From the sequence record NC_041873.1: a stretch of DNA of 50,298 bases. One strand, given 5' to 3'. Position numbers and translations under genes: made by a program. The notes beneath the pieces are model-generated. The model did no database searches, was not told the DNA's origin, and saw nothing but the letters and a program-made list of their open reading frames with translations. Shown in pieces: positions 4,959 to 42,230 of the stretch (the first letter of the stretch is position 1; every line of letters begins with the position of its first letter). This DNA is from Escherichia phage JMPW2.

Positions 4959-4993
4959 CGGGGAATCGGATCTGAACGGTTCCCCTTTCTTTT
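4959..4993 (+). terminator. rho-independent terminator
   Basis: GC stem ggggaa...ttcccc followed by tttcttttgg. Confidence 0.5.
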
Positions 4994-5100
4994 GGAGAAA
5001 ACACTATGCCAGACTTTTCTAACTGGAATAACGAGCCGCCATCATTTCAGGAGTTGCTATTTTGCCTCCTGGTCCTGACATTATCTCTTAAGGGTGTTTT

Positions 5101-5319
5101 ATGGCTACTATCATAACCGCAGAAGATGCGGCGCGTGACGCAGTGGAAGGAATGCGCCCAAATACCTCCAGAATCGCCCACTACTACAAGTTTGAGGTGT
5201 CGGCAGTGCAATTGGTCCACGAAATTTTAAGGCTCCCACAAGTCGATTCAGCGCGAGTAGTGACGTGCTTAAAAAATTATTTTTGCATCACTATTAAAAC
5301 GAATAGCACGAATTGCTAA
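5101..5319 (+). CDS. hypothetical protein
   Basis: Track ORF; reads through the box to a TAA. Confidence 0.4.
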   Translation: MATIITAEDAARDAVEGMRPNTSRIAHYYKFEVSAVQLVHEILRLPQVDSARVVTCLKNYFCITIKTNSTNC

Positions 5320-5352
5320 AACCTATCAAGGGGAATGCGCTATGATTCCCCT
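5303..5352 (+). promoter_or_regulatory. palindromic box plus stem-loop
   Basis: aatagcacgaattgctaaaac; hairpin aggggaat...attcccct with TATGAT. Confidence 0.6.
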
Positions 5353-6920: not shown

Positions 6921-7493
6921 ATGAAAACAGCTATCATTTTAAACGGCGCACCTGGTGCGGGAAAGGACACTATCGGATGCATCCTGGCTGACACTTACGA
7001 TCACGTGGCGCTACGCAGCTTTAAGGCTCCGATGTTTGAGATTGCCCGAGCAATATTGGGTGAGGCTAATTTCGAATATTTCATGTTCTTGTATGAGGAC
7101 CGTCGCTATAAAGAAGAGCCAGCATCAATCCTGAACGGTAAAAGCCCGCGCCAGTTTATGATCTGGATTAGCGAGGAGGTCATCAAGCCGCAGTTCGGAA
7201 ATCGCTTCTTCGGTATGCGAGCGGAAAGCAAGGTGAAAGAGTCTCACTCCCTTTCGGTATTTACTGACGGTGGATTCAAAGACGAGATCTTGCAGATGAT
7301 TGAAGGTGATATCCAGGTAAAGCTATGTCGAATCCATCGCAACGGTTGCAACTTTGACAACGACAGCCGAGACTATATCTATCTTGACGATATGATCGGG
7401 GTCAACGGTTATCAGGAGTGCGACTTCTTTTCTGTCGAAGGCCATCCAGAAATTACCGCTCAGCACATAGCCGCCACGTTCATCAATAAATAG
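6921..7493 (+). CDS. P-loop kinase (T4 gp1-like dNMP kinase or polynucleotide kinase)
   Basis: Walker A GAPGAGKDT at N-terminus; LNGKSPRQ resembles T4 dNMP kinase. Confidence 0.6.
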   Translation: MKTAIILNGAPGAGKDTIGCILADTYDHVALRSFKAPMFEIARAILGEANFEYFMFLYEDRRYKEEPASILNGKSPRQFMIWISEEVIKPQFGNRFFGMRAESKVKESHSLSVFTDGGFKDEILQMIEGDIQVKLCRIHRNGCNFDNDSRDYIYLDDMIGVNGYQECDFFSVEGHPEITAQHIAATFINK

Positions 7494-7542
7494 CACGAAT
7501 TGCTAAAACGTCGATGGGGTGATTTGATATAGTTACCTCATC
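7489..7542 (+). promoter_or_regulatory. palindromic box plus stem-loop
   Basis: aatagcacgaattgctaaaac; hairpin gatggggt...acctcatc with TGaTATAGT. Confidence 0.6.
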
Positions 7543-8116: not shown

Positions 8117-8346
8117 TGTTCGGTTTAAGTGAGGCAGAATGGAACGTAGTAAAGCGCGCGGCGAAGGAATTAAATAAATTCGTTAGCGGCATGAAGAAGG
8201 AAGATCGTAAAAACGACAAGATCATGATTGACGTGATTTCTACTCACCACAAAAAGGTCGAGCTACTCATCGACCGATACAAGTTTGTCTGGACTGCCGG
8301 GTATATTGCCGGGCGCGTAGGTAACAAAGAAGGGGATTACGAATAA
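8116..8346 (+). CDS. hypothetical protein
   Basis: Track ORF; TAATG overlap. Confidence 0.5.
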   Translation: MFGLSEAEWNVVKRAAKELNKFVSGMKKEDRKNDKIMIDVISTHHKKVELLIDRYKFVWTAGYIAGRVGNKEGDYE

Positions 8347-9280: not shown

Positions 9281-9301
9281 CCCGCTTCGGCGGGTTTTTT
9301 T
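9281..9301 (+). terminator. rho-independent terminator
   Basis: cccgcttcggcggg hairpin plus T7 run. Confidence 0.7.
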
Positions 9302-9319
9302 ATGCCTGCAATATGGTAA

Positions 9320-9339
9320 AATAGCACTAAATGTTAAAC
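9320..9339 (+). promoter_or_regulatory. palindromic box variant upstream of terminase small subunit
   Basis: aatagcactaaatgttaaac. Confidence 0.45.
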
Positions 9340-11487: not shown

Positions 11488-11541
11488 TAAATGAGATATA
11501 ATCAGGGCTGTCAATTGACGGCCCTTTTTATTGGAGGAAAC

Positions 11542-12825
11542 ATGAAAATTGTTAAGCATGATGGATATAACGATATCTTTAACGGCGGCGCGGACGGATC
11601 GCCTAAGCCATTCTTTATGTCTGATGCATCATATCACGTCGGTTCTTTCTACAACGACAACGCAACCGCGAAGCGAATTGTGGATGTTATCCCGGAAGAG
11701 ATGGTGACGGCTGGTTTTAAAATGTCAGGCGTTAAGGATGAAAAAGAGTTCAAGTCTTTATGGGATAGCTACAAACTTGATTCAAGTCTGGTGGATCTTC
11801 TTTGTTGGGCGAGACTTTACGGTGGCGCGGCTATGGTGGCAATCATCAACGACAACCGGATGTTAACCAGTCAGGCAAGGCCTGGAGCTAAACTTGAAGG
11901 CGTCCGAGTTTACGATCGATTCGCTATCACTGTTGAAAAGCGAGTCACCAATGCAAGATCCCCTCGCTATGGTGAGCCTGAAATTTACAAGGTATCACCT
12001 GGCGACAATATGCAGACGTATCTGATTCATCACTCAAGAGTCTTTATTGCTGATGGTGAGCGAGTAACGCAACAGGCAAGAAAGCAGAATCAAGGATGGG
12101 GAGCTTCGGTATTGAACAAGTCACTGATTGATGCAATCTGTGATTATGATTACTGTGAATCTCTTGCTACTCAGATCTTGCGACGTAAGCAACAGGCTGT
12201 ATGGAAGGTCAAAGGTCTTGCCGAAATGTGTGATGATGATGATGCTCAGTATGCCGCGCGCCTGCGACTTGCTCAGGTTGATGATAACTCCGGCGTAGGT
12301 CGTGCGATCGGTATCGATGCTGAGACTGAGGAATATGACGTTCTCAACTCTGATATCAGCGGAGTTCCTGAGTTCTTATCAAGCAAGATGGACCGCATCG
12401 TCTCACTATCCGGGATTCATGAGATTATCATTAAGAATAAGAACGTAGGCGGCGTGTCAGCGAGTCAAAACACAGCGCTTGAGACTTTCTATAAGCTAGT
12501 CGACCGCAAGCGTGAGGAAGACTACAGGCCGCTTCTTGAGTTCTTGTTGCCGTTCATTGTTGATGAGGAAGAGTGGTCGATCGAGTTTGAACCTTTGTCT
12601 GTTCCGAGTAAGAAAGAGGAATCGGAGATCACGAAGAATAACGTTGAGTCAGTCACGAAGGCTATCACTGAGCAAATCATAGATCTGGAAGAAGCTCGCG
12701 ACACGCTGCGATCCATTGCCCCTGAGTTCAAACTCAAGGATGGTAATAACATCAACATTCGCGAACCGGAAGAAACAACCGAACCGGAACCGGGATTATG
12801 GGAGAAGTTAGAATATGAAAATTAA
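11542..12825 (+). CDS. portal protein
   Basis: About 430 aa directly after terminase; acidic C-terminus; SD ggagga. Confidence 0.75.
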   Translation: MKIVKHDGYNDIFNGGADGSPKPFFMSDASYHVGSFYNDNATAKRIVDVIPEEMVTAGFKMSGVKDEKEFKSLWDSYKLDSSLVDLLCWARLYGGAAMVAIINDNRMLTSQARPGAKLEGVRVYDRFAITVEKRVTNARSPRYGEPEIYKVSPGDNMQTYLIHHSRVFIADGERVTQQARKQNQGWGASVLNKSLIDAICDYDYCESLATQILRRKQQAVWKVKGLAEMCDDDDAQYAARLRLAQVDDNSGVGRAIGIDAETEEYDVLNSDISGVPEFLSSKMDRIVSLSGIHEIIIKNKNVGGVSASQNTALETFYKLVDRKREEDYRPLLEFLLPFIVDEEEWSIEFEPLSVPSKKEESEITKNNVESVTKAITEQIIDLEEARDTLRSIAPEFKLKDGNNINIREPEETTEPEPGLWEKLEYEN

Positions 12826-15194: not shown

Positions 15195-15227
15195 GGGACT
15201 ATCTTTTTTTTGGATAGTCCTTTTTTT
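15195..15227 (+). terminator. rho-independent terminator
   Basis: ggactatc / gatagtcc stem flanked by T runs. Confidence 0.6.
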
Positions 15228-15241
15228 ATGGAGAAATCATT

Positions 15242-16009
15242 ATGGCTTACGAAAATTTGTTCTTGCGCCCCGCGTGTCCGGGAAATATTTCTGATACTTC
15301 AACCTACAATATTGATGGAGCTTGTGTGGCTCAAGGTGACATTGGGTTCGGCTCAGCGGTTCAGGTTGTAGGCATCGTTGACGGTGTAAAAGTTGTGGCG
15401 GCGCTTCCTGATGGTGGAACTCCTTACGGTATCGCTTTCCGTTCCCAATATGAACACCTGAGCGGTAAAATCCTTGACGGTGAAGTGTGCAACGTCGTTT
15501 CTCACGGTCGCGTATGGACTCTTACTTCTCTTGGTGAGGCTCCCAGCTTGTTCTCAAAGTTACAGTTTGGGTCTGGTGGAGTTGTTACTGGTGGATCTGG
15601 TTCCGCAGGTTGGACATTTGCGGGTGGCTTTGTTAAGCATGAAGATGGCTACATCATTGAGGTTCAGGTGAAACAAAATGCTTTCATCGCTCCACCGCCA
15701 CCGCCCCCTGTCGTTCTTGTTGAATCTGCTACAATCGCCACTGACAAGGAAAGCCCTCAACCAAACAATGTTACGATCCAGTGTGTAGCTAATGCTCTTC
15801 CGGATAATGCAACCGATAAGACTGGTAAATGGTCAATCGACGCTACCAATATCGCCACTGTCGATCCGGACTCAGGTCTTGTAACTCCTGTTGGTGGAGA
15901 GGTAGTCGGTGATTTCAATATTACCTGGACGGCTAACGATGCCAGCAAGACGACGGCAACTATTGCTTATCGCGTAGAAGCAGTGCCAACGCCAGAGGTT
16001 GATGCATAA
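15242..16009 (+). CDS. capsid accessory/decoration-like protein (paralog B) with polyproline linker and Ig-like C-terminus
   Basis: Paralog of 14703; PPPPPPP linker then beta-rich domain. Confidence 0.5.
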   Translation: MAYENLFLRPACPGNISDTSTYNIDGACVAQGDIGFGSAVQVVGIVDGVKVVAALPDGGTPYGIAFRSQYEHLSGKILDGEVCNVVSHGRVWTLTSLGEAPSLFSKLQFGSGGVVTGGSGSAGWTFAGGFVKHEDGYIIEVQVKQNAFIAPPPPPPVVLVESATIATDKESPQPNNVTIQCVANALPDNATDKTGKWSIDATNIATVDPDSGLVTPVGGEVVGDFNITWTANDASKTTATIAYRVEAVPTPEVDA

Positions 16010-16029
16010 CATAAAAACACTTTGACGCT

Positions 16030-16046
16030 TTAACAAAAAGTGCTAT
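16030..16046 (-). promoter_or_regulatory. palindromic box upstream of major capsid gene
   Basis: ttaacaaaaagtgctat followed by hairpin with CATAAT loop. Confidence 0.5.
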
Positions 16047-16053
16047 TATTGAA

Positions 16054-16080
16054 GCCGTGAACATAATCACGGCTTTTTTA
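16054..16080 (+). terminator. rho-independent terminator / stem-loop
   Basis: gccgtga...tcacggc stem plus T6; loop contains CATAAT. Confidence 0.6.
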
Positions 16081-17066: not shown

Positions 17067-17095
17067 AGGGGCTAACTTAGTTAGTCCCTTTTTTA
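17067..17095 (+). terminator. rho-independent terminator
   Basis: ggggctaac / gttagtccc stem plus T6. Confidence 0.6.
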
Positions 17096-17109
17096 TTGGA
17101 GAAATCAAA

Positions 17110-17397
17110 ATGGCTAAAGAAAAAACTGTTGTTATCGTAAACGTTGGTGTAGCTCTTCAGATGTTCCGTCTTGAAGATGGTTCCTTTGCTAAAGTTCTTC
17201 CAGATGAAGAGGTCACGCTTCCGGCGTCCGTTCTTGATTTGCCTGGCCTGCGTTGCTTAATTGCTCGCGAAGAAATCGAAGTTAAAGACGACAGTGCAAC
17301 CAACCGCAAAATCCGCGCTGAAATGGCAAAGATCACTAAGCCAGATCCGTGGGATAGCAAAAGCGTTAAAGAGCTTGAGGACGGCGGCGAATATTAA
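17110..17397 (+). CDS. hypothetical structural protein
   Basis: Track ORF; SD ggagaaa. Confidence 0.5.
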   Translation: MAKEKTVVIVNVGVALQMFRLEDGSFAKVLPDEEVTLPASVLDLPGLRCLIAREEIEVKDDSATNRKIRAEMAKITKPDPWDSKSVKELEDGGEY

Positions 17398-19728: not shown

Positions 19729-19750
19729 GGGGGCTTGCGCCCCCTTGTTC
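19729..19750 (+). terminator. rho-independent terminator
   Basis: gggggc ttgc gccccc plus T-rich tail. Confidence 0.6.
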
Positions 19751-19791
19751 ATTTCTGTAAAATCATCCTATCAACTTTATTCGATTAACTT

Positions 19792-19808
19792 TTAACAAAA
19801 AGTGCTAT
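19792..19808 (-). promoter_or_regulatory. palindromic box upstream of tail chaperone gene
   Basis: ttaacaaaaagtgctat then CAACCAATCAGGAG leader. Confidence 0.5.
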
Positions 19809-20502: not shown

Positions 20503-23376
20503 ATGGTTGATAAGGTAGCAGGTCTGTCGCTTGACGTTGATGTGTCAACAGTGCAGCGCGCCGTCAAGTCACTGAAAGAGTTTTCAAAGGCCAACGACCA
20601 GGCCGCTGATTCTATGGGTTCTTTAATCAATGAGTCAGAGGTTGCAAAACAGAAGGCCAAAGAACACGCTGAACAACTCAGGCGTCAGAGAAAAGAGTAT
20701 GAGGCCGTGGAGAAGGCAATCGATCCTACAGTATCAAAAATGGAAAGGTTGAAGATTGCATCTCAGCAGCTTGATAAACTCTGGCAGCAGGGAGTCGTTC
20801 CAGATGAGACATTTTTCCGTTTGGGTGAAATGCTGGATCTGCAAAACGCAAAACTTGCTCTCAGCCGGGCTATGCTTACGGAAGAAGGTCAGGCGGCATT
20901 GCAGGAAGCGAAAGCAAAAGAGCAGGCGGCAGCACGAAGCAAGGCGTTCATGGATGCCCTGAATGGTCAAGTTAACGCGATCGGCAAGACTCATGCTGAA
21001 TTGATGGAACTGAAAGCGGCTGAGCTTGGTTTATCGAAAGAAGCAGCACCACTAATCGCAAAACTTAAAGATCAAGGCCGGGCTATGAATGCAGCAGGTA
21101 TTAGCGCCGGGGAATACAGGCAGGCAATGCGAATGCTTCCTGCACAGATTACCGACGTCGTTACATCTCTTGCATCCGGCATGCCAGTTTGGATGGTTGC
21201 CATCCAGCAAGGCGGTCAAATCAAGGACTCGTTCGGCGGGATCAGTAATACGTTTAAAGTGTTGCTGAGTTATATTAATCCAGTCACAGCAGGGGTTGGC
21301 GTTCTCGTTGGCTCGTTAGGTCTTCTGGCGAAAGCTGGTTATGACTCTTACAAGTCAATAACTGATATTCAGAATGCGCTTATTGAGACTGGCGGTTATG
21401 CAGGTGTTACGGCTGAAGAGCTTGATTCAGTGTCTAAAAAGATCGCACAGACAAGCAACTCAACCATTGGGAGTATTCGCGATATTGTAACGGAGTTGGC
21501 GAGTTCTGGTAAGTACACCCGCGAGCAGATCCAGAACATCACTAAGGCTACCGCAGAGTGGTCAGCGTCAACAGGAAAATCAGCAAGCCAAATTATTTCT
21601 GAGTTCGACAAAATCGCAAGCGATCCGGTAAAAGGCCTGAAGAAGTTAAACGAGCAATATAATTTCCTTGAAAAAGGGCAACTTACCTATATCGATACAT
21701 TAAGCCGGACGAAAGGAGAAACTGAGGCAGTATCAGAGGCTACCAAACTATTCGCAGACGTAATGGAAAAGCGAATGAAGTCGATCGCGGATAACGCTAC
21801 TCCTCTGGAAAAGATGTGGAGCGATATTAAACAATGGGCTTCGGACGCGTGGGGATGGGTTGGTGATCATACACTCGGGGCGCTAAACCTGATTGTCGAC
21901 GTTGTTCAGGGTACAGTGATTCAGGTTAAAATGATTCTTGCGAAGGGTGATGAGTACATCTCAAACTTTATCGCCTCAGCCATAAAGGCAACTCAGTCAC
22001 TACCTGGAATGAGTGATTTCGGCGCTGATGTGCTGAAGGAGCAGGAGAACATCGTAAAAAGTTCTCGCGACAACTACGACCAGTTGGCTTCAGAGCTTGA
22101 TGCTATTAACGCTCGCGTAGAAAAAGGCGAGATGGGATACGTTGAAGCGATGAAGCAGCGTCGAACTCTTGAAAAGCAGTACAGTGAGGAAACTAGGGAG
22201 GCAATAAGGAAAGAAGCAGAAGAGATCGAGAAGCGAAACCGAGAAAGAAATAAGCAGTCGAAAATTGTACGCTCACCGACAGAGCAATTCGACAAGGAGT
22301 TAATTTCACTCAAGGCTCAACTTAAGGTATTGCAGGAGCATAAGGAGATCGGTCAAAAACTTTCCGCGCAGAGAAAGGCGCTGTTTACTACCGAGGCTAC
22401 GATTGCTGTTCTTCGTGAAGCCAGCTCTAAGCGTCAGTTGTCTGCGGAAGAAAAAGCGTTGCTGGCAAGTCAGGAGAGAGTTATTGAGCTTGCGAAACAG
22501 AAGGCCGAGATTGGCGATCAGATTGTTAAGCAACAACAGTTGAATGATCTTACCGATAAATCTCTGAAGTTTGTCAATGAGATGACGGCAGCTACAGAAC
22601 AGCTAAACGCGTCTCGAGGGATGAGCACCCGAGAAATGGAAAGGCAAGCTGAGTTGGCTAAGATCACTACTGATTATATTAATGCAGGTGGCAGCGAAGG
22701 AGATGAAAAACTCCAGAACATGATCAAGGCACAAAATGATTACTATGCTGCGGAAGATGCCAAGCGTTCTGACTGGTTAGCAGGTGCTGAAAGTGCATTT
22801 GCAGATTACGGCGATTCTGCAATGGATATGTACGGCAATGTGTATGATATCGCGTCAAGTTCACTTAACGGAATGAGTGACATGATGACCCAATTCCTGA
22901 CTACAGGTAAGGCAAATTTTGAGGACTTTGCGAAAAACATCATTAGCATGATTATCAAGATGATTGCTCAAATGGTAATCTTCAATACGATCTCAGGCAT
23001 GATGGGCGGTAAGACGTGGAGCTTTGCTGGAGGGGTGTCGCCTGGTGCTTCTGCGGTATCACAGGCAACTCCTACGCCTGCCGTCTCTGGTTTTAGGTCT
23101 TTATCTTCAGGCGTCGCTGTTACCTCGCTTGCTGCCGCTGCGGGTAGTGTTGCAACATCTGGATTTAACGCATCTAAATCCGCACCGAAGGCAGTGAACC
23201 AATCAGCAGGCGGGACGGTCGTTGATGTTAGGGGTATGGAGGTTAAAGTTGACAACGGTTCAGATCCGAGAGGAATTTCTCAGGGCGTAGAAATGATGTT
23301 CAAAAAAATGATTCGAGAGTCTTGTTCACAGGGCGGAGAGGTTTACAATTACATTCAGGAAAAAACAGGAGGCTAA
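20503..23376 (+). CDS. tail tape measure protein
   Basis: 957 aa, coiled-coil rich, hydrophobic segment near C-terminus, directly after chaperones. Confidence 0.85.
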
Positions 23377-23378
23377 TA

Positions 23379-23732
23379 ATGGCGACACTTGACACTTTCA
23401 GTTGGTGTACGCAGGTTCAAGGGGGCGGCGGCTCCCTTACCACTACCAACAATGACAGATCCATACAGTTTGGAAACGGCCACATGCAGCTTGCATCTTC
23501 TGGATTTAACACCACGCGACGCGAGTATTCAGTTGTCTATGCTGGGGAAGATTTCATGGCTGTTTACGACTTCTGTGATTCTCACCGCATTAAACCTTTC
23601 GCATGGACGCCGCCGGACGGGAAGATCGGAATATGGGTTGTTAAGCCTAACAGCCTGGGCGCGAAGCCAGTATCACGCGACGTGATGGAAATTAATGTCA
23701 CGTTTATGGAGCAGTTTACATCTATGGAATAG
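23379..23732 (+). CDS. minor tail protein M-like
   Basis: Size and position match the lambda-type M/L/K/I/J order. Confidence 0.65.
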   Translation: MATLDTFSWCTQVQGGGGSLTTTNNDRSIQFGNGHMQLASSGFNTTRREYSVVYAGEDFMAVYDFCDSHRIKPFAWTPPDGKIGIWVVKPNSLGAKPVSRDVMEINVTFMEQFTSME

Positions 23733-23748
23733 CACTTCATGACAAAAG
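23728..23748 (+). promoter_or_regulatory. half-box (TAGCAC only)
   Basis: aatagcacttcatgacaaaag. Confidence 0.3.
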
Positions 23749-23770
23749 CCCGCCTTGCGCGGGTTTTTTT
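23748..23770 (+). terminator. rho-independent terminator (copy 1 of identical pair)
   Basis: cccgccttgcgcggg plus T7; identical hairpin at 25928. Confidence 0.65.
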
Positions 23771-23811
23771 GTAGCTGTAGAATGGTTGCAACTAAACAAG
23801 AGGAAAAGACA

Positions 23812-24594
23812 ATGAGCGAAAACAAAAAACTTTATGATGAAGAAAGCGGGAAGAGCCTGTTTCACAACTGCCTTCAATCACTATACCCTGGAGAGATAAT
23901 CACTCTGATTGAAGTTGATGGCAGCAAGTTCGGCGCTCAGGTGTACCGTTTCCACGGGGAAAATATCCAGTACACTCCAGAAGAAATCATGCAGGCACAG
24001 CAAACCGGAACGCTACCGCCGAAAGAAATCACCTTCCGTGGCGAGCAATACGGCGCGCGACCTTTCGGTATATCCGGGATCTCGTTCGACAGTTCCGGCA
24101 AGGCCACAAAGCCACAATTAACGGTGGCAAACATCGATAGTCGCGTATCTGCGATGATTCGTGCATATAACGGACTAATGCAAGCTAAGGTGACTATCTG
24201 GATCACTCAAAAGGACTTAATTCAACCTAACGGCTCAATCGCTGACGGAGCTTACCGAAAACTGGTATACTATATCGAACGCCCGAGCTATGTCGATAAG
24301 AGTGTCGCCAGGTTCGATCTAACGTCTCCTTATGATATGGATGGAATCATGATACCGTCACGACTAACTCAAAGCGTTTGCTATTGGGCGCAGAGGGGAT
24401 GGTATAAAACCGGGAAGGGGTGCGGATACAACGGGCAAAATGGTTACTTCGATAAAGACAATAATCCGGTAGACGATCCTTCGCTGGATTTTTGCCCGGG
24501 AACGGTAACGGCCTGCCGCCTGAGATTCGGCGCAAACAATGAATTGGATTTTGGCGGTTGCGCAGTCGCTTCACTACAGAGGAAAAATCAATGA
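23812..24594 (+). CDS. minor tail protein L-like
   Basis: Position and size in lambda-type order. Confidence 0.7.
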   Translation: MSENKKLYDEESGKSLFHNCLQSLYPGEIITLIEVDGSKFGAQVYRFHGENIQYTPEEIMQAQQTGTLPPKEITFRGEQYGARPFGISGISFDSSGKATKPQLTVANIDSRVSAMIRAYNGLMQAKVTIWITQKDLIQPNGSIADGAYRKLVYYIERPSYVDKSVARFDLTSPYDMDGIMIPSRLTQSVCYWAQRGWYKTGKGCGYNGQNGYFDKDNNPVDDPSLDFCPGTVTACRLRFGANNELDFGGCAVASLQRKNQ

Positions 24595-25325
24595 TTAGTG
24601 CAAAAATTAAACTTGAAATTATGACTCACGCTCAAGAAGAATATCCTCGCGAATGCTGTGGGGTAGTCACCCAAAAGGGCCGCGTACAAAAATACCATCG
24701 CGTTGATAATGTACACCGCGATCCCGAGAATCATTTCATGATGGATGCTGTACAATACGCTTGCATTGAGGACGATGCGGAATCAACAACAATAGCAATT
24801 GTTCACAGCCACACAGGAGACGGGGCTACAACTCTACCAAGCGCTCACGATACGTGCATGTGCAACGAGATGGAAGTTACCTGGATTATTGTTAGCGTGC
24901 CGGAAGGGGATATGCGATTTGTGAAGCCGGAGAAATTGCCTCTGATTGGTCGTCCGTGGTCATTAGGATCATTCGACTGTTACGGTCTTGTTATGGCGTG
25001 GCACAAAGAGCACGGCGTAGAATTGCGCGATCGCCGATTGAATTTTGAATGGTGGAAACCTGAGTACGGAATTAATCTCTATCAGGATTATTACAAGCAG
25101 GATGGCTTCGTTGAGATTCCAGATCAGAATAATCCGTCATTCGGTGATATGGTAATCATGCAGATAGGGCAAAACGTTCCGGTATGGAACCATGCAGGGA
25201 TTTACCTGGGAGATAATCAGATCTTGCATCATGCCTTCGGCAAGCTATCTCGTCGTGATATTTATTCCGGATGGTATCAGGATCATACTGTTTTAATCGT
25301 TCGCCATAAGGATCTTAAATTATGA
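24591..25325 (+). CDS. tail assembly protein K-like (JAMM/MPN plus NlpC/P60)
   Basis: JAMM-like HSHTGDGATTLPSAHD and downstream Cys/His peptidase-like region. Confidence 0.75.
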   Translation: MISAKIKLEIMTHAQEEYPRECCGVVTQKGRVQKYHRVDNVHRDPENHFMMDAVQYACIEDDAESTTIAIVHSHTGDGATTLPSAHDTCMCNEMEVTWIIVSVPEGDMRFVKPEKLPLIGRPWSLGSFDCYGLVMAWHKEHGVELRDRRLNFEWWKPEYGINLYQDYYKQDGFVEIPDQNNPSFGDMVIMQIGQNVPVWNHAGIYLGDNQILHHAFGKLSRRDIYSGWYQDHTVLIVRHKDLKL

Positions 25326-25921
25326 ATGATGTAAAAGTAATTAAATTGTCAGGTTCACTTGGGAGACGCTTCGGCGTCTTTCACCGTTACGCTGTTGACT
25401 CTTACCCGGAAGCCATACGGGCGCTATCCAGTCAGGTGGACGGATTTAAAGAATACATGCAAAGCGAGGTAGGATCTCGTAGCAAGTTTTCAATATTTGT
25501 GGATGGCGTTAACGTGGGACACCATGAAGAGGAAAAATTCAAGTGCGCGAAAGAGATAAGAATCGTACCGATCCCTACTGGCTCTAAGACAGGAGGTCTA
25601 TTTCAGGTTGTATTGGGCGCGGCAATAATGGTTGCAGCATTCTATACTGGCGGCGCGTCTCTGGCTTTAATGGGCACAATGTCCTCTTCTCTGTTTATGA
25701 TGGGCGGCGCTATGGTGCTGGGCGGCGTGATGCAGATGATTTCACCGCAGCCGGGTGGCGCAAACTTTGAAGTTCAATCAAGCAAGAATAAACCTTCGTA
25801 CGCGTTCGGCGGTGCTGTCAATACGACGGCGGCGGGATACCCTCTCCCGGTCCCGTATGGATATCGCGCCGGAGGTGGCGCAACTTTCTCAGCAGGTTCT
25901 TATGCCGAGGATATGAGTTAA
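25322..25921 (+). CDS. tail assembly protein I-like
   Basis: Position; Gly/Ala-rich hydrophobic C-terminal half. Confidence 0.65.
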   Translation: MNDVKVIKLSGSLGRRFGVFHRYAVDSYPEAIRALSSQVDGFKEYMQSEVGSRSKFSIFVDGVNVGHHEEEKFKCAKEIRIVPIPTGSKTGGLFQVVLGAAIMVAAFYTGGASLALMGTMSSSLFMMGGAMVLGGVMQMISPQPGGANFEVQSSKNKPSYAFGGAVNTTAAGYPLPVPYGYRAGGGATFSAGSYAEDMS

Positions 25922-25926
25922 AATTA

Positions 25927-25951
25927 ACCCGCCTTGCGCGGGTTTTTTTTC
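25927..25951 (+). terminator. rho-independent terminator (copy 2 of identical pair)
   Basis: cccgccttgcgcggg plus T8, then TGtATAAT extended -10-like. Confidence 0.65.
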
Positions 25952-25975
25952 GCCTGTATAATGAGTCCACTGATA

Positions 25976-25995
25976 AATAGCACAAAAAGGTAAAC
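25976..25995 (+). promoter_or_regulatory. half-box (TAGCAC only) upstream of J
   Basis: aatagcacaaaaaggtaaac. Confidence 0.3.
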
Positions 25996-25998
25996 ATC

Positions 25999-28900
25999 AT
26001 GATTCAAAAAGTGATAAGCGGATCTAAAGGTGGGTCACAGAAGCCTCATAACCCAGTTGAGATGGAGGACAATCTAATCTCAATCAACAAAATCAAGATC
26101 CTGTTAGCTGTATCTGATGGTGAAATTGACGAAACATTCAGCCTAAAGCAGTTGATGTTTAACTCAGTTCCGGTGCAAAACGAGGATGGATCATTCAACT
26201 TCGAAGGGGTAAGGGCTGAGTTCAGGCCGGGAACTCAGACGCAGGAATACATCAAGGGCATGGAAGATAGCTCAAGTGAGGTAACTGTAAATCGTGAGGT
26301 TACTACCGATAACCCATACACGATCTCAGTAACCAATAAAACACTATCGGCAATACGCATCAAAATGTTTATGCCTCGAGGTGTACGAATTGAAAGCAAT
26401 GGTGATAAAAACGGCGTTCGAGTTGAGTACGAGGTGCAGCAAGCGGTTGATGGCGGTTCGTTTGAGACTGTTCTTACTGACGTAATCGAAGGTAAAACAA
26501 TGTCAGGTTATGATCGAAGCCGTCGCGTAAACCTGCCTAACTTCAACAATCAGGTAATATTCAGAGTTGTTCGAAAGACGCCTGATTCCAATGACTCGAA
26601 TGTCGTTGATGCAATCCAGGTAAGAAGCTATGCCGAGGTCATTGATGCCAAATTCCGATATCCTCTGACTGGTCTTCTTTTCGTAGAGTTCGATTCGAAG
26701 ATGTTCCCAAACCAGTTACCTACGATCTCAATTCGTAAGCGCTGGAAGATTGTAAGCGTTCCGTCGAACTACGACCCAGAATCGCGAACATACAACGGCA
26801 ATTGGGATGGCACTTTCAAAAAAGCATGGACGAACAATCCGGCGTGGGTTCTTTATGACCTGATGATTAATCAGCGTTACGGCTTGGATCAGAAAGAGCT
26901 TGGTATCGCTGTCGATAAATGGGCGCTCTACGAGGCTGCGCAATATTGCGATCAGATGGTTCCTGATGGGAAGGGCGGGACGGAACCTCGATACCTTTGC
27001 GACGTGATAATCCAGTCTCAGACTGACGCTTACAAGGTTATTCGAGATATTTGCTCAATCTTTCGAGGTATGAGCTTTTGGAATGGCGAAAGCATTTCGG
27101 TAATCATCGATAGGCCGCGTGAGCCTGCGTACATCTTCACTAACGACAACGTGGTTAATGGTGACTTCTCCTACACGTTTGCAAGCGAAAAGAGCATGTA
27201 CACGACGTGTAATGTGATGTTTGACGACGAGCAAAACATGTATCAGCAGGACGTTGAGCCAGTATTCGATCGTGAGGCTACTCTACGGTTCGGGAACAAC
27301 GTAACGAGCATTACAGCGATCGGCTGCACACGTCGAAGCGAGGCCAACCGACGCGGGAGATGGATTCTGAAAACTAACCTCCGCAGCACTACGGTAAACT
27401 TCGCTACCGGACTTGAGGGTATGATTCCGACAATCGGAGATGTTGTGGCAATAGCTGATAACTTCTGGTCAAGTAACTTGACGATGAACCTATCAGGGCG
27501 CTTGCTCGAAGTATCCGGTAGTCAGATTTTCTTGCCGCTCCGGGTGGATGCACGCGCGGGTGACTTTATTATCGTAAATAAGCCAGATGGCAAGCCCGTG
27601 AAGCGCACAATATCAAGTGTTAGTGCGGATGGTAAGACTATAGAGGTTAACATTGGCTTTGGCTTTCCTGTGAAGCCTAACACGGTATTCGCTATCGACC
27701 GCACCGACATTGCGTTACAGCAGTACGTCGTGACAAAAATCGATAAGGGCGATGATGATGAGGAATTTACCTACAAAATAACGGCGGTGGAGTACGATCC
27801 TAACAAGTACGATGAGATTGATTACGGAGTTAATATCGACGACCGACCGACGAGCATCGTTGAACCAGATCAGATCCCTAGACCGGAAAACGTGCAAGTG
27901 TCCTCAGAGTCACGAATCGTCCAGGGGATGAGCGTAGAAACGATGATTGTTAGCTGGGATAAAGTGCCGTACGCAGTTTTCTATGACGTCCAGTGGCGAA
28001 AGGATAACGGCAACTGGCAAAATGTACCGCAGACAGCAAACAAAGAGGTATACGTTGAAGGTATTTACGCTGGCAACTATCAGGTTCGCGTTCGCTCCGT
28101 CGCTGGTTCTGGTACAACTTCCGGCTGGTCAAATATCGTCGCAGCGACGTTGACAGGCAAGCAAGGAGAGCCAGGGAGGCCGATTAACCTTACAGCTACA
28201 GATGATGTTGTTTTTGGTATCCGTACAAAATGGGGGTTCTCTGATGGTTCTGGAGATACGGCCTATACAGAGTTGCAACAGTCACCAGATGGAACAGTGG
28301 ATAACGCAAGTTTGCTTTCTTTGATTCCGTACCCGCAGCATGAGTATTATCACTCACCGATGCCTGGAGGGAATATTGTGTGGTATCGGGTAAGGACGGT
28401 TGATAGGATCGGTAACGTGTCTCAGTGGACTGATTTTGTCAGAGGTATGGCATCAACAAACGTTGACGATATCATTGGGGAGATTTCTGTCGATATCGAA
28501 AACTCGCCGGGTTACGAGTGGCTTGTTGATAACGCAACCGACAACGCGGCGCAGAACGCAGCGAACGCAGAGGCAGCAATTGAGAACGCTCTAGCTAATG
28601 ACAAAGACGCGATCTACATGAAGAAGGAGAACGGAAAACGAAAAGCAGAGTACACCAAATCACTGCAACTTATTGCTGATGAGACTCAGGCGCGAGTAAC
28701 AGCAGTTGAGCAGTTAAGGGCAAGTTTTGGTGATCAGATTAGTGCAAGCAATAGCGAATTGCGTGAAGTTATCGCAACTGAGACTGGAGCGCTATCGCGT
28801 GAAATTGACCAACTCAGGGCAGAGATTGGTGATGATATTCAGGCAAGTTTGACTGATATCAGAGAGGCTATAGCAAACGAGACTGAGGCGAGAACGCAAG

Positions 28901-29418
28901 CTGACTTAACACTTAGCGCGCGGCTTGGGGATAACGAGGCGGCACTTGCTCAAAAATTAGACTCTTGGAGCAATGCCAGTTCTACCGGGGCAATGTACGG
29001 CGTCAAGCTGGGTCTGAAATACAACGGACAGGAATATAGCGCAGGCATGGCTATGTCTCTGATTGGTTCCGGCGCAGCTGTTAAGGCGCAAATTCTATTC
29101 GAGGCGTCGCGATTTGCAATCATGACAGGGATGAACGGTCAGACTCAGTATCCTTTCGTTGTTGAAGGTAATCAGGTGATTCTTAATAGCGCCATTATTA
29201 AGAACGGATTCATCACGAATGCGATGATTGGTAATGTTATTCAATCGAATAACTATGTCGTTAACAAGGCTGGCTGGATACTTGACAAGGGTGGAACATT
29301 AGAAAACTACGGAAGTGACGCTGAGGGTGCAATGAAGCAAACTAATACCACAATATCTGTTAGGGATGCGAGTGGTCGCCTGAGGGTTCAGATTGGCAGG
29401 TTGACTGGTTCATGGTAA
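25999..29418 (+). CDS. host specificity / tail tip protein J-like
   Basis: 1139 aa, last and largest of the lambda-type tail-tip order. Confidence 0.85.
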   Translation: MIQKVISGSKGGSQKPHNPVEMEDNLISINKIKILLAVSDGEIDETFSLKQLMFNSVPVQNEDGSFNFEGVRAEFRPGTQTQEYIKGMEDSSSEVTVNREVTTDNPYTISVTNKTLSAIRIKMFMPRGVRIESNGDKNGVRVEYEVQQAVDGGSFETVLTDVIEGKTMSGYDRSRRVNLPNFNNQVIFRVVRKTPDSNDSNVVDAIQVRSYAEVIDAKFRYPLTGLLFVEFDSKMFPNQLPTISIRKRWKIVSVPSNYDPESRTYNGNWDGTFKKAWTNNPAWVLYDLMINQRYGLDQKELGIAVDKWALYEAAQYCDQMVPDGKGGTEPRYLCDVIIQSQTDAYKVIRDICSIFRGMSFWNGESISVIIDRPREPAYIFTNDNVVNGDFSYTFASEKSMYTTCNVMFDDEQNMYQQDVEPVFDREATLRFGNNVTSITAIGCTRRSEANRRGRWILKTNLRSTTVNFATGLEGMIPTIGDVVAIADNFWSSNLTMNLSGRLLEVSGSQIFLPLRVDARAGDFIIVNKPDGKPVKRTISSVSADGKTIEVNIGFGFPVKPNTVFAIDRTDIALQQYVVTKIDKGDDDEEFTYKITAVEYDPNKYDEIDYGVNIDDRPTSIVEPDQIPRPENVQVSSESRIVQGMSVETMIVSWDKVPYAVFYDVQWRKDNGNWQNVPQTANKEVYVEGIYAGNYQVRVRSVAGSGTTSGWSNIVAATLTGKQGEPGRPINLTATDDVVFGIRTKWGFSDGSGDTAYTELQQSPDGTVDNASLLSLIPYPQHEYYHSPMPGGNIVWYRVRTVDRIGNVSQWTDFVRGMASTNVDDIIGEISVDIENSPGYEWLVDNATDNAAQNAANAEAAIENALANDKDAIYMKKENGKRKAEYTKSLQLIADETQARVTAVEQLRASFGDQISASNSELREVIATETGALSREIDQLRAEIGDDIQASLTDIREAIANETEARTQADLTLSARLGDNEAALAQKLDSWSNASSTGAMYGVKLGLKYNGQEYSAGMAMSLIGSGAAVKAQILFEASRFAIMTGMNGQTQYPFVVEGNQVILNSAIIKNGFITNAMIGNVIQSNNYVVNKAGWILDKGGTLENYGSDAEGAMKQTNTTISVRDASGRLRVQIGRLTGSW

Positions 29419-29424
29419 TATCAA

Positions 29425-29451
29425 GGGCATCGAGAGATGCCCTTTTCTTTT
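29425..29451 (+). terminator. rho-independent terminator
   Basis: gggcatc gaga gatgccc plus T-rich tail. Confidence 0.65.
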
Positions 29452-29463
29452 GGAGGATTTATT

Positions 29464-29769
29464 ATGGCGTACGGTATATCAACTTGGGACGCAAATGGCG
29501 TTTATAATAACTATGGAATTAAGCCTATCACGGTTGTTGGTTGGAACTTTTTGTCAGCAGGACAGAATTCAGCATCGTTCAGCTATCAAGTTCCTCCTGG
29601 TATGCATGTGAATTACGTTATAAGCCTTGACGATGGCGCCATTAGTGGGCCTGGCAGGAAAATTATTGCTAGTGGTAATACGATAACAGTAACGCCAACA
29701 AACTCACCAGGGCCAAACGTGTATCCATCATCAAACTGTTACTTAATAGCATATCTGGAGAATGATTAA
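29464..29769 (+). CDS. hypothetical protein downstream of J (paralog 1)
   Basis: N-terminus MAYGISTWDANG matches MSYGAFIDVNG of next gene. Confidence 0.5.
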   Translation: MAYGISTWDANGVYNNYGIKPITVVGWNFLSAGQNSASFSYQVPPGMHVNYVISLDDGAISGPGRKIIASGNTITVTPTNSPGPNVYPSSNCYLIAYLEND

Positions 29770-31235: not shown

Positions 31236-32350
31236 ATGTTCCAGGTGTTCACATCAAGTCAGCTTTCTAATGACGAGTATCATAGCAACGAAGGTTGGGC
31301 GGCAGAGTATGTAAGCGGTTCTAGCCTTGCAGAAATTTATCAGACTTGCCCGGCTAACTGGAGATTCAAGAAGAATGAGACAACGAAGGCGCTGGAGTTT
31401 GGTACTCAGTCGCATACCAACTTTGAGAGCCGAGATCTGTTTACTGCAACGTATGCACGTTGTCCGGCTCCGTCAGAGTTCAAGGATCTGATTACGTCAC
31501 AAGCCGCACTGGCTGCAAAATTAAAATCTTTCGGCCTGAAAGGTACATCCGGTAAGCAGTACCCGGACCTCATCAAGATGATGGTTGATTGCGGTGAAGA
31601 GCTAAACGTCCAATATCTGATCGAGTTGATTGCGGAAGCAGAGGCGCGCTCTGAAGGAAAGAAATTGGTTGACGCTGACAAATACGACGCTTGCATGAAG
31701 ATGAGAGCAATCCTTGAACAAAATCCTGATCACGAAGCGTGCATCAACAGTGAAACGGCGCAGCGTGAGATTTCAATCTTCGGTGAGATATCCGGCGTCA
31801 AGGTTAAGGTTCGACTTGACCATCTGGACTACAAAGAGAATGTTCCAGGTCGTGTCCTGACTGGTTATGATGAGAATGGAGATCCGGTATTCGAAGATGT
31901 TATTTTCCCTGAAGCACTGATGAGAATGGAGATCCGGTATTCGAAGATGTTATTTTCCCTGAAGCACTGATTATCACTGACTTCAAAACAACAATGAGCG
32001 CCAACCCGTTAGAGTTCCCGAGACTGGCATACAATCACGGGTATTATCTGAAAATGGCCTTGCAGCATGATCTGCTACGACGCGCAATCCAGGCTGGCGC
32101 TTTTGAAGGCAACTTCCCGGAATATATCCCGATCGTAGTTCGATTGCTGGCTCAGGAGAAAAAAGAGCCTTACATCGCACTTGCTTACCGTATGACTATG
32201 GAGCAAATCAGGATCGGTCGTAGCCAGTATGTTAGCGTAGTCCACACTTACAAGGCTTGCTCTGAAATGGATGTTTGGCCTGGGTACGCTGGCGACGCAA
32301 GCGAGATTGAACTTGAAACGCCATCATGGGTGCGTTACCAAAATAAGTAA
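31236..32350 (+). pseudogene. PD-(D/E)XK recombination exonuclease, frameshifted by 50-bp tandem duplication
   Basis: 31871..31920 and 31921..31970 are identical; removing one copy fuses ORFs 31236..31970 and 31994..32350 in frame and restores ...FPEALIITDFKTT... Confidence 0.6.
31871..31970 (+). repeat. perfect 50-bp direct tandem duplication (2 copies)
   Basis: tgagaatggagatccggtattcgaagatgttattttccctgaagcactga repeated exactly. Confidence 0.95.
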
Positions 32351-33560: not shown

Positions 33561-35116
33561 CATTTGGACTTCAACATTTTTATCTCTTCTTGTAACTCTT
33601 CAACTTTCTTTATTGTATCCTGTAAAGCTCTCATAGTGTCAAGCAATAAAGGAGTTGTATCAAGCTCAAGCCTTTCAACTTTTGGCCCGTTTAGCTCGTG
33701 GCTCTCATACACCCTTCTCTTAACATATAGATTGTCGATCTCTTCTATCTCCTGAGCTATAACACCTCTCCTTACCCTTTCTTGCTCATCATCGTTAAAT
33801 ATAAAGTTCCTAAATCTCATTGATTTTATGTTGTTGTATGCAATGCTTGATTCATCATCCTTTATGCCGTGCTTTATATTTCTGTCAGATGCCGGAACCT
33901 GTTGGAAACTTCCAGCCCCTTGCGGTCCAGCGTAAGATATTTGCCCTGAAGCCATAAACCTGAAATGCATTTGCAGACCAATATTGCCTGCTCCATCCCT
34001 ATCTTGAGTGCCTACTGATATTTGTGCCCTGGGCCATTCAGGATTACCCGTAGTCATCATGCCAAATGCTACGCCGCCAACGTATCCCTGACCTCTGGTG
34101 TCACACGATCCAGCAATAAGTGATTGATAGTTTTCAGCACCACTATCAGCGGTGTAAGCATTACCCTGGAAGCATGAAGCAGACCACATCTGGTTGTAAC
34201 CCATAGATGTTTTCTGGCATAAAAACTGATTAGCTCTGAATCTATTGTTAGTCTCGAAGTAGTTTGCCCCCTCATAAAATAATAAAGCCCCAGCATAACC
34301 ATTATCGCTACGTTCTTTTCTGACGTAAATACCTGGCGTAGATATTCCATCAGGTGACATAATCATCAATGATGACAATATGGACTGACTACCCCAGCTA
34401 GAACCGTCCCATGAATTCCTTCCTGCACCTATAGCGCCAGTGGTGTTAATAGTAAGAAAGTTAACAGCATCATTTTCACCTAACCCAATATTTTTTCTTG
34501 ACTCTTTTTTATCCTCAAGACCAGCTAGATTGCCATCCTTAGTTAAAAGATTTTCAGCGTCAACGCTATTTGCTGCGTCCTTTGCTTCCTGCGCACTGAC
34601 TGCTGCTGCATCTTTTGCGCTAACCGCTGCATCGCGTGCAGCGTTGGCTGCGTCACGCGCTAATTCAGCCTGATTTTGCGCAGCTTGAGAATCAGATTTC
34701 GCCTGATTCACATCAGCAACTATTTGCTCAAGTTTATTCATATCAGCAACTATTTGCTCAAGTTTATTCATATCAAGCTGATTTATCAGGTCTATAGCTG
34801 CCGCAATCTCAGTCTCTTTGCTTTGATAGTATCGAAGAGTCTCGGCGACGTTTTGAGCTAATCCGTTAACGGTTAGAGAGTCATTAAGTAGGATCACATA
34901 CTTACCGTCATCGGCAGTCTGACCATCAGTAGAGATAGCCTTTAATTCTGTATCACTAACGATATCGCTAATCACAGCTAGCTTAATTGGTTGCTCAAGG
35001 AACACGATAGTTGCACCTACGCGAATAAGAGCAAGCTGGTCTTTCCATTTTGTATCGGTTCCGTGAACCGTTCCGTCTGCATCCATTGATGCAGTACCGC
35101 GTCGATATAAAGCCAT
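33560..35116 (-). CDS. tail fibre protein with C-terminal intramolecular chaperone-like domain
   Basis: Fibre-like N-terminus MALYRRGTASMDADGTVHGTDTKW; Ala/Gln coiled region; C-terminal coiled-coil ...LQDTIKKVEELQEEIKMLKSK. Confidence 0.7.
   Translation of the reverse strand: MALYRRGTASMDADGTVHGTDTKWKDQLALIRVGATIVFLEQPIKLAVISDIVSDTELKAISTDGQTADDGKYVILLNDSLTVNGLAQNVAETLRYYQSKETEIAAAIDLINQLDMNKLEQIVADMNKLEQIVADVNQAKSDSQAAQNQAELARDAANAARDAAVSAKDAAAVSAQEAKDAANSVDAENLLTKDGNLAGLEDKKESRKNIGLGENDAVNFLTINTTGAIGAGRNSWDGSSWGSQSILSSLMIMSPDGISTPGIYVRKERSDNGYAGALLFYEGANYFETNNRFRANQFLCQKTSMGYNQMWSASCFQGNAYTADSGAENYQSLIAGSCDTRGQGYVGGVAFGMMTTGNPEWPRAQISVGTQDRDGAGNIGLQMHFRFMASGQISYAGPQGAGSFQQVPASDRNIKHGIKDDESSIAYNNIKSMRFRNFIFNDDEQERVRRGVIAQEIEEIDNLYVKRRVYESHELNGPKVERLELDTTPLLLDTMRALQDTIKKVEELQEEIKMLKSK
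34712..34771 (-). repeat. perfect 30-bp in-frame tandem duplication inside tail fibre gene
   Basis: atcagcaactatttgctcaagtttattcat x2, encoding MNKLEQIVAD twice. Confidence 0.95.
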
Positions 35117-35135: not shown

Positions 35136-35155
35136 AATAGCACGAATTGCTAAAC
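35136..35155 (+). promoter_or_regulatory. palindromic box between primase and tail fibre genes
   Basis: aatagcacgaattgctaaac. Confidence 0.5.
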
Positions 35156-35192
35156 ACAGATTTTATCATCGCGCCATGAGTCTTGCAACGGG

Positions 35193-42190: not shown

Positions 42191-42230
42191 ATAGCACCTT
42201 TTGTTAAAACAGTACCCGCGAAAGCGGGTA
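42189..42230 (+). promoter_or_regulatory. palindromic box plus stem-loop
   Basis: aaatagcaccttttgttaaaac; hairpin tacccgcg...cgcgggta then TATTAT. Confidence 0.55.

Follow-up and report, generated by a model that had tools for sequence, protein, structure and literature searches.

Identical terminator hairpins with adjoining promoter-like boxes at two tail-tip gene junctions of Escherichia phage JMPW2

Results and Discussion

The window analyzed here, the whole 50,298-base sequence of Escherichia phage JMPW2 (NC_041873.1), is a complete T1-like siphovirus genome (Tunavirus, Drexlerviridae) and corresponds to IMG/VR contig IMGVR_UViG_2974570372. In its rightward late (structural) transcription unit, one and the same hairpin is found after tail-tip gene M and after tail assembly gene I, followed in both places by a T run and a -10-like hexamer, and we consider that each of these elements is, on balance, probably a compact stop-and-restart module, a reading that we draw from sequence comparisons. 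The elements are real and non-random but ordinary, and the terminators are already annotated in phage T1. The modest new part is a family-wide geometry in which a TTG in the hairpin loop, the T run, and a TAnAAT hexamer line up as a putative promoter that is unmarked as such in the annotations of T1 and Citrobacter phage Sazh.

Two Identical Hairpins with the Anatomy of Terminators

The 15-mer CCCGCCTTGCGCGGG has exactly two copies in the window, both on the + strand, a number of matches reached by none of 100 shuffles. They sit after M and after I, so that genes L, K, and I lie between them.

23749..23763, + strand: hairpin 1, CCCGC-CTTGC-GCGGG, made up of a G+C stem of 5 bp and a loop of 5 nucleotides (nt); the upstream AAAAG pairs with the U tract and lengthens the stem
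23764..23770, + strand: T7 run, the U tract of terminator 1 and most of the putative promoter spacer
25928..25942, + strand: hairpin 2, a 15-mer identical to hairpin 1; AA/UU pairs lengthen the stem
25943..25950, + strand: T8 run, serving terminator 2 as U tract and the putative promoter as spacer

An earlier note on this DNA, made from the letters alone, had reported such a pair of hairpins with T runs bracketing L, K, and I; the pair is real, and the sites are the right ones, although the positions given for them (23748 and 25927) are one base low. Exact identity of the two sites extends over 22 nt (hairpin plus T7), and an ungapped similarity of 36 nt at 86% (repeat family D10) takes in CTGTAGAATG / CTGTATAATG.

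Both elements are very likely standard rho-independent terminators, to judge by their sequence and predicted fold. Each combines a G+C hairpin with a short loop, an unbroken U tract, an intergenic position, and a structure that is kept in relatives. The predicted RNA folds have energies of -14.1 kcal/mol at site 1 (z = -2.8 versus shuffles) and -12.8 kcal/mol at site 2 (z = -2.5), hairpin 1 begins 16 nt past the M stop codon and hairpin 2 begins 6 nt past the I stop codon, and both are on the + strand, like all late genes. A consensus scan of the window also flagged these terminator hairpins, which belong to a set of ∼12 intergenic terminators of this type in the late region. In T1 (AY216660), the orthologous sites (22793-22816 after M and 24972-24994 after I) carry an annotation as rho-independent terminators, and the same holds for the vB_EcoS_SA32RD record; in Sazh and in TLS (T46 and T49) they are annotated as terminators. 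The T1 site before the small terminase gene (8322-8344) is an annotated terminator as well. The hairpins match no known structured RNA family: Rfam 15 gave no match at gathering score in the whole window, with only two sub-threshold chance matches within 23600-26100. Read on the minus strand, each hairpin has TTTT after it, and leftward transcripts could therefore also be stopped there.

Promoter-Like Boxes Overlap Both Hairpins

Shortly beyond the T runs, TGTAGAAT is found at 23776-23783, 5 nt after T7, and TGTATAAT at 25955-25962, 4 nt after T8, and both hairpins carry in their loop and 3' arm a -35-like box at the same distance from the -10-like hexamer.

23778..23783, + strand: TAGAAT, -10-like, 5/6 consensus; TG (23776-23777) directly abuts, and a start near 23790 would be expected
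25957..25962, + strand: TATAAT, -10-like, 6/6 consensus; TG (25955-25956) directly abuts, and a start near 25969 would be expected
23755..23760, + strand: TTGCGC, -35-like, 3/6 consensus (the TTG), made up of loop and 3'-arm bases of hairpin 1, with 17 nt between it and TAGAAT
25934..25939, + strand: TTGCGC, -35-like, 3/6 consensus, made up of loop and 3'-arm bases of hairpin 2, with 17 nt between it and TATAAT

The pattern common to both sites is thus TTGCGC-N17-TA(G/T)AAT, in which the T run makes up most of the spacer. The looser pattern TTGNNN-N17-TANAAT, for which 2.8 matches would be expected in the window, has eight, a number not reached in any of 100 shuffles. The third of these matches lies at the V-G junction, where a differing hairpin is followed by CTGTAAAAT, and a weaker relative of the element precedes the small terminase gene.

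19729..19763, + strand: sister module at the V-G junction, hairpin GGGGG-CTTGCG-CCCCC (19729-19744), then TTGCGC-17 nt-TAAAAT with CTG before the hexamer
9281..9338, + strand: weaker sister module before the small terminase gene, CCCGC-TTCG-GCGGG, T7, CCTGCAATATGG, TGGTAAAAT, and an ATAGCAC repeat; member of repeat family D10 at 69%

The Layout Is Conserved at Three Junctions

To follow these elements through the family, junctions were surveyed at 68 loci around gene K and 68 loci around gene V, all taken from IMG/VR (relatives' loci are referred to by L-numbers; T1 is represented by L006/L029). At the I-J junction, the parts keep their order from 100% down to ∼45% identity of protein I: the hairpin and its T run are separated from TAnAAT by 4-6 variable bases, and another ∼12 variable bases lead to the ATAGCAC repeat, which contains the ribosome-binding site (RBS) and is followed by ATG. 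A -10-like hexamer is present in 45 of 46 unique junctions (TATAAT in 35, TAGAAT in 8), and in 34 of these 45 a TTG lies exactly 17 nt upstream. When 26 diverse I-J junctions are aligned, the T, A, A, A, and T of TAnAAT are invariant, the third base varies (T/C/G), and the linker bases that flank the hexamer vary freely. The third position is among the less conserved ones of the sigma-70 -10 hexamer. In the same 26 relatives, the hairpin core is nearly invariant, loop included, and the outer pair alone covaries (AU/CG/GC), with eight cells changed on both sides, which 0 of 500 shuffles reach.

At the M-L junction, the hairpin sequence changes between genera, always to another hairpin with a T run (CCCGCCTTGCGCGGG, GCCGCCTTTGTGCGGC, GGCCCGCCTTTTGTGCGGGCC, GCCCCCATTGCGGGGC, GCCTCCTTATGGGGGC). 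Here, the hexamer is found in 32 of 42 unique junctions and a TTG at 17 nt in 22, and a canonical extended -10 follows the hairpin in most genera (TGCTACAAT, TGCTATAAT). At the V-G junction, 21 of 22 unique junctions have the hexamer, and all 21 have a TTG at 16-17 nt. Within Tunavirus, the segment 23742-23790 has zero substitutions in seven of eight relatives inspected. Conservation of this kind at three junctions, over hairpins that differ in sequence, is what would be expected of a sigma-70-type promoter that overlaps a terminator, and we infer such an overlap from it.

Two relatives depart from the layout in ways of their own. In L033 (IMGVR_UViG_2974674285, 2858-2880), 168 nt are gone right after the site-1 hairpin (equivalent to window 23764-23931), a loss that takes away the first 40 codons of L along with the T run, hexamer, and RBS ahead of them and that could represent either a deletion variant or a misassembly at the hairpin. 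In L037 (IMGVR_UViG_2974611450), the I-J junction has lost the 3' arm of the site-2 hairpin to other sequence (CCCGCTCCGCATTCA, equivalent to window 25933-25942), with TATAAT and the T run still in place; many small indels in nearby genes make the quality of that sequence doubtful.

A Proposed Stop-and-Restart Module

As RNA, CCCGC-CUUGC-GCGGG followed by U7-U8 and preceded by an A tract has the anatomy of a rho-independent terminator and would halt part of the host RNA polymerase arriving from the tape-measure and M genes (site 1) or from L-K-I (site 2). As DNA, the same 45 nt may act as a sigma-70-type promoter, with the loop TTG serving as -35, the 3' arm, the T run, and 4-5 further nt forming the 17-nt spacer, and TAGAAT or TATAAT serving as -10, so that transcription would restart ∼20-30 nt upstream of L and of J. 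Because the restarted transcripts would begin downstream of the hairpin, they would not be subject to that terminator, and, overall, expression of the low-copy tail-tip genes would no longer be tied to that of the genes upstream. The released polymerase might even be recaptured in cis by the adjacent promoter: single-molecule work has shown that E. coli RNA polymerase can stay on DNA after intrinsic termination and re-initiate, and a terminator a few nt from a promoter is an arrangement expected to be efficient in such recycling (PMC6978380, PMC6978322, PMC10372574). Recycling is known from model templates, whereas at the phage sites it is a sequence-based proposal.

The earlier note had concluded that transcription is punctuated at the two sites. 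This is still the best reading, and it is supported by the terminator anatomy, the annotation of orthologous sites, and the family-wide hexamer, from which we infer both termination and initiation. It is also a published view: according to a published account, the 2004 T1 genome paper took a near-identical "transcripton" view of the T1 late region. In a search that did not cover the 2004 T1 paper, we came across no account of the overlap geometry, with the loop TTG as -35 and the T run as spacer, nor of its conservation at three junctions.

Several observations count against a promoter at these sites. The -35-like TTGCGC agrees with TTGACA at only three of six positions, and the Rtp-like phages, whose loop is CTAGT, lack the -35-like TTG altogether. 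The TG before the hexamer is at -14/-13, whereas the canonical extended -10 (TGnTAnAAT) has it at -15/-14. The M-L junctions of L040, L056, L059, and the Rtp-like phages consist of a hairpin, a T run, and GGAG with no -10 hexamer; in these lineages a restart promoter is therefore not obligatory, and read-through must suffice. At the I-J junction, it is the sequence of the hairpin, and not only its structure, that is nearly invariant, and the TTG accounts for only part of this. The conserved hexamer could, moreover, serve a role at the RNA level. Finally, the curated annotations of T1 and Sazh mark no promoter after these terminators, and we found no transcript-start or transcript-end data for any T1-like phage in the literature. 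Apart from these points, a consensus promoter scan of the window listed neither site.

The TG also bears on the name that the earlier note gave to the element after each hairpin, an extended -10. The hexamers TAGAAT and TATAAT hold up, but the name is wrong in register because the TG directly abuts the hexamer and is therefore one base off; the extended -10 pattern TGNTANAAT matches neither site, and the canonical extended -10 reading is ruled out.

A rather unlikely alternative is that the elements are terminators only, leaky ones that step down transcription along the late operon, and that TAnAAT is kept for a reason at the RNA level, for instance as an AU-rich single strand beside a stem-loop that is an RNase E site, or as part of a 5' leader that controls translation of L and J. 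The terminator anatomy and its annotation are solid, several lineages have no hexamer at M-L, the T1 and Sazh annotations have no promoter at these sites, and most other late junctions consist of a terminator and an RBS alone, so that read-through must occur anyway. Such compact junctions (repeat family D6) are found at 4982-5008, 11521-11547, 15218-15244, 17086-17112, and 29440-29466, where the T run of the terminator leads straight into TTGGAG(A/G)A...ATG, with terminator tail, RBS, and start codon within ∼25 nt; they leave no room for a promoter, and the genes downstream of them must rely on read-through. It counts against terminators alone that the hexamer is invariant at every position but the third, which is the conservation pattern of a sigma-70 -10, that a TTG recurs at 16-17 nt at three junctions over hairpins of differing sequence, and that a canonical TGnTAnAAT stands at the same place in other genera. 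These features argue for the stop-and-restart module.

More tentatively, hairpin, T run, and hexamer may constitute one bifunctional 45-nt element that is shared by the V-G, M-L, and I-J junctions across the Drexlerviridae. Together with the element before the terminase gene, these could then be the late promoters of T1-like phages, with terminating polymerase passed straight on to the promoter beside the terminator and the ATAGCAC repeat (at I-J and before the terminase gene) acting as a switch site for a phage factor; we regard this wider scheme as possible but doubtful.

The results confirm the view that intrinsic terminators divide the late region of T1-like phages into short transcription units, a point of small consequence in itself. 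They also provide a concrete and cheap hypothesis for the transcription starts of the tail-tip genes in a classical phage, and a warning to phage engineers to leave the 45-nt junctions intact.

Why the Two Hairpins Are Identical

The identical pair of hairpins is confined to Tunavirus and two neighboring lineages (L046 and L216); in other genera the two hairpins differ, and each is kept with its own junction. The sequence is not unique to these sites, as the exact 21-mer CCCGCCTTGCGCGGGTTTTTT occurs in 101 IMG/VR stretches that represent 79 distinct contexts. Of these contexts, 48 lie beyond the three Drexlerviridae junction types, in unrelated phage contigs, and resemble a plain terminator with an RBS after it. 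With this 21-mer so widely used as a terminator by unrelated phages, no special mechanism has to be invoked for the two hairpins being identical: CCCGCCTTGCGCGGG is a generally favored terminator sequence, whose loop is in the Drexlerviridae also constrained by the TTG. A copying event in a Tunavirus-like ancestor is possible and is not needed to account for the identity. There is no evidence of concerted evolution of the two hairpins, since the sites differ outside Tunavirus, L046, and L216. Transfer of the module into a foreign background, considered for L216, is ruled out as well: its nearest relative, L046, carries the same module, and vertical inheritance therefore suffices.

The near-invariance of the I-J hairpin raises another explanation for the identity of the copies, namely that the hairpin is a sequence-specific recognition element, such as the RNA target of a phage termination or processing factor, loosely like lambda boxB (5-bp stem, 5-nt loop), and that the copies are identical because they share a binding specificity. 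The I-J hairpin and its loop are indeed conserved across genera whose flanking proteins are 45-80% identical, with covariation confined to the outermost pair, and the 15-mer turns up at other junctions from one genus to another. We nevertheless consider a recognition element improbable. The 21-mer occurs in at least 48 unrelated phage-contig contexts as what appears to be a plain terminator and RBS, which favors a general terminator over a protein site specific to the family; the M-L hairpin varies freely among genera; no candidate factor was identified; and the -35-like TTG is a simpler reason for the conservation of the loop.

No Support for the Hairpins as Borders of an Exchanged L-K-I Cassette

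The genes on either side of the two hairpins are homologous to the tail-tip genes of phage lambda.

23379..23732, + strand: tail-tip gene M, Pfam PF05939 (E = 1.8e-24), T1 orthologue CPTT1_041; stop codon TAG at 23730-23732
23812..24594, + strand: tail-tip gene L, Pfam PF05100 (E = 3.9e-43); RBS GAGG at 23800-23803
24591..25325, + strand: tail-tip gene K, Pfam JAB (PF14464) and NlpC/P60 (PF00877); start as in the T1 annotation
25322..25921, + strand: tail assembly gene I, Pfam PF06805 (E = 1.1e-26)
25999..29418, + strand: tail tip/host-specificity gene J, Pfam PF13550, PF24801, and PF09327

The earlier note had further suggested that the two repeats offer homology for recombinational exchange of the L-K-I cassette. 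Several facts speak for exchange or deletion of such a cassette among co-infecting relatives as an explanation of the repeats: the repeats are direct, exact over 22 nt, and have L-K-I between them, T1-like phages are mosaic and encode recombination functions of their own (exonuclease VIII and an Erf-like recombinase), and the intergenic junctions of relatives accept insertions of extra open reading frames (ORFs). We compared L-K-I mosaicism by aligning 14 Tunavirus relatives over 21058-28822 and recording the identity per segment and the positions of differences. Around the junctions (22500-27500), the window shares 99.9% identity with Escherichia phages vB_Henu5_2 and vB_EcoS_SH2 and 93% with T1. 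In the 14 relatives, blocks of identity break within L, K, I, and J; no block has the two hairpins as its limits. Between T1 and the window, for example, identity is 90.6% across L and 93.3% across the first 1.4 kb of J, compared with 98.8% in K and 99.3% in I, and the high-identity block runs from ∼24720, inside K, to ∼26145, 150 nt into J; in pSf-2, the switch in identity falls inside I. Nor do the protein identities of ∼60 more distant loci reveal an L-K-I block that is discordant with M and J.

Because the mosaic breakpoints fall inside L, K, I, and J and not at the hairpins, the cassette idea is unsupported, and together with the lack of a discordant block in the distant loci this leads us to reject L-K-I cassette exchange; as the reason for the two repeats we hold it to be extremely unlikely. 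The flanking genes of close relatives are ∼90% identical and so offer far more homology than 22 nt, most genera have unlike hairpins at the two sites, and a genome whose two direct repeats recombined with each other would lose L, K, and I, which are presumably essential, to judge from their homologues in lambda.

Insertions at these junctions are a separate matter. An extra ∼0.3-0.6 kb is present at tail-tip junctions in L059, L074, L077, and L082 (M-L), in L066/L067 and L072 (L-K and I-J), in L056 (K-I), and in L076 (I-J). The M-L inserts of L074, L077, and L082 contain a small ORF that is equipped with an ATAGCAC repeat and a -10-like hexamer of its own, and a terminator is retained at the end of the insert; the inserts at other junctions were inferred from gap lengths. 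The tail-tip junctions thus appear as hot spots of insertion, though not as borders of L-K-I exchange.

Comparison with Related Phages and Lambda

T1 has the same 15-mer at both sites, between the same neighbors (M-L and I-J), and differs in that its current annotation has no promoter after these terminators. In TLS and Sazh (Tlsvirus), the terminators after M and after I (T46 and T49) are likewise each followed by TATAAT/TACAAT, and an ATAGCAC repeat (DR8) lies between T49 and J. There, however, the two hairpins are unlike each other, GCCGCC(A)TTGTGCGGC versus CCCGCCGTTGCGCGGG / CCCGCGGTTGCGCGGG, and CCCGCCTTGCGCGGG is instead placed before the terminase gene, exactly in Sazh and several IMG/VR contigs and as a one-base variant in TLS T28. 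Lambda has homologous tail-tip genes in the same order, M-L-K-I-J, on one long Q-antiterminated transcript from PR', without internal pairs of terminator and promoter, whereas in JMPW2 terminator-like hairpins and -10-like boxes separate the homologous genes.

The ATAGCAC Direct Repeat

At the I-J junction, the putative promoter is followed by a copy of a direct repeat that has been described for TLS, T1, and Rtp and whose function is unknown (PMC11447400).

25974..25994, + strand: TAAATAGCACAAAAAGGTAAA, one copy of the 21-nt Drexlerviridae direct repeat (aaATAGCACnnnTTGnTAAAA), placed after the -10-like hexamer and ahead of the J start codon; it holds the RBS

This copy begins with ATAGCAC at its 5' end, ends with TAAA(A) at its 3' end, points the way transcription runs, and is intergenic; it belongs to repeat family D2 (81%), corresponds to DR8 of TLS, and is conserved at I-J in relatives. 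The hairpins themselves are not members of the repeat. A degenerate ATAGCAC-like motif at 23728-23748 was dropped as a part of the module at site 1, where most Tunavirus relatives have unrelated sequence.

In the window as a whole, ATAGCAC-N5-T(G/T)nTAAAA has ∼24 copies on both strands, for example at 1448-1469, 2469-2490, 5303-5324, 7490-7510, 35137-35157, and 42191-42212, with minus-strand copies at 118, 47866, and 49445. In the early regions, the repeat usually overlaps the stop codon of the upstream gene, and ∼18 nt further on a short G+C inverted repeat holds a -10-like hexamer (TATAGT, TAGAAT, or TATTAT) in its loop (e.g., GGGGTATCTTGCTATAGTTACCCC), with an RBS and ATG coming next; we saw no description of such a hexamer in a hairpin loop in PMC11447400. 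The late region has two inverted copies, within 16022-16076 and 19791-19808. The reverse complement of 16022-16049 reads TTGACG-16 nt-TGCTATTAT; among sites near the major capsid gene, it is the most promoter-like. Since it is immediately upstream of a terminator hairpin (16054-16073, followed by T6), a transcript from it would begin inside that hairpin and would escape termination. The second inverted copy sits between the V-G hexamer and the start of gene G.

Other Features of the Genome

Inside L, the minus strand carries an antisense promoter-like site at 24296-24269 (TCGACA-16 nt-TATAGT, 10/12), which may well be due to chance. A repeat scan found a 30-nt tandem duplication at 34706-34765 with copies that are 97% identical (family D13). 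A perfect 50-nt tandem duplication at 31868-31967 causes a frameshift that splits the gene for exonuclease VIII (RecE-like) into two ORFs (31236-31970 and 31994-32350), and it is either a real inactivating mutation or an assembly artefact; removal of one 50-nt copy yields a 354-codon ORF that is 98% identical to ExoVIII of T1.

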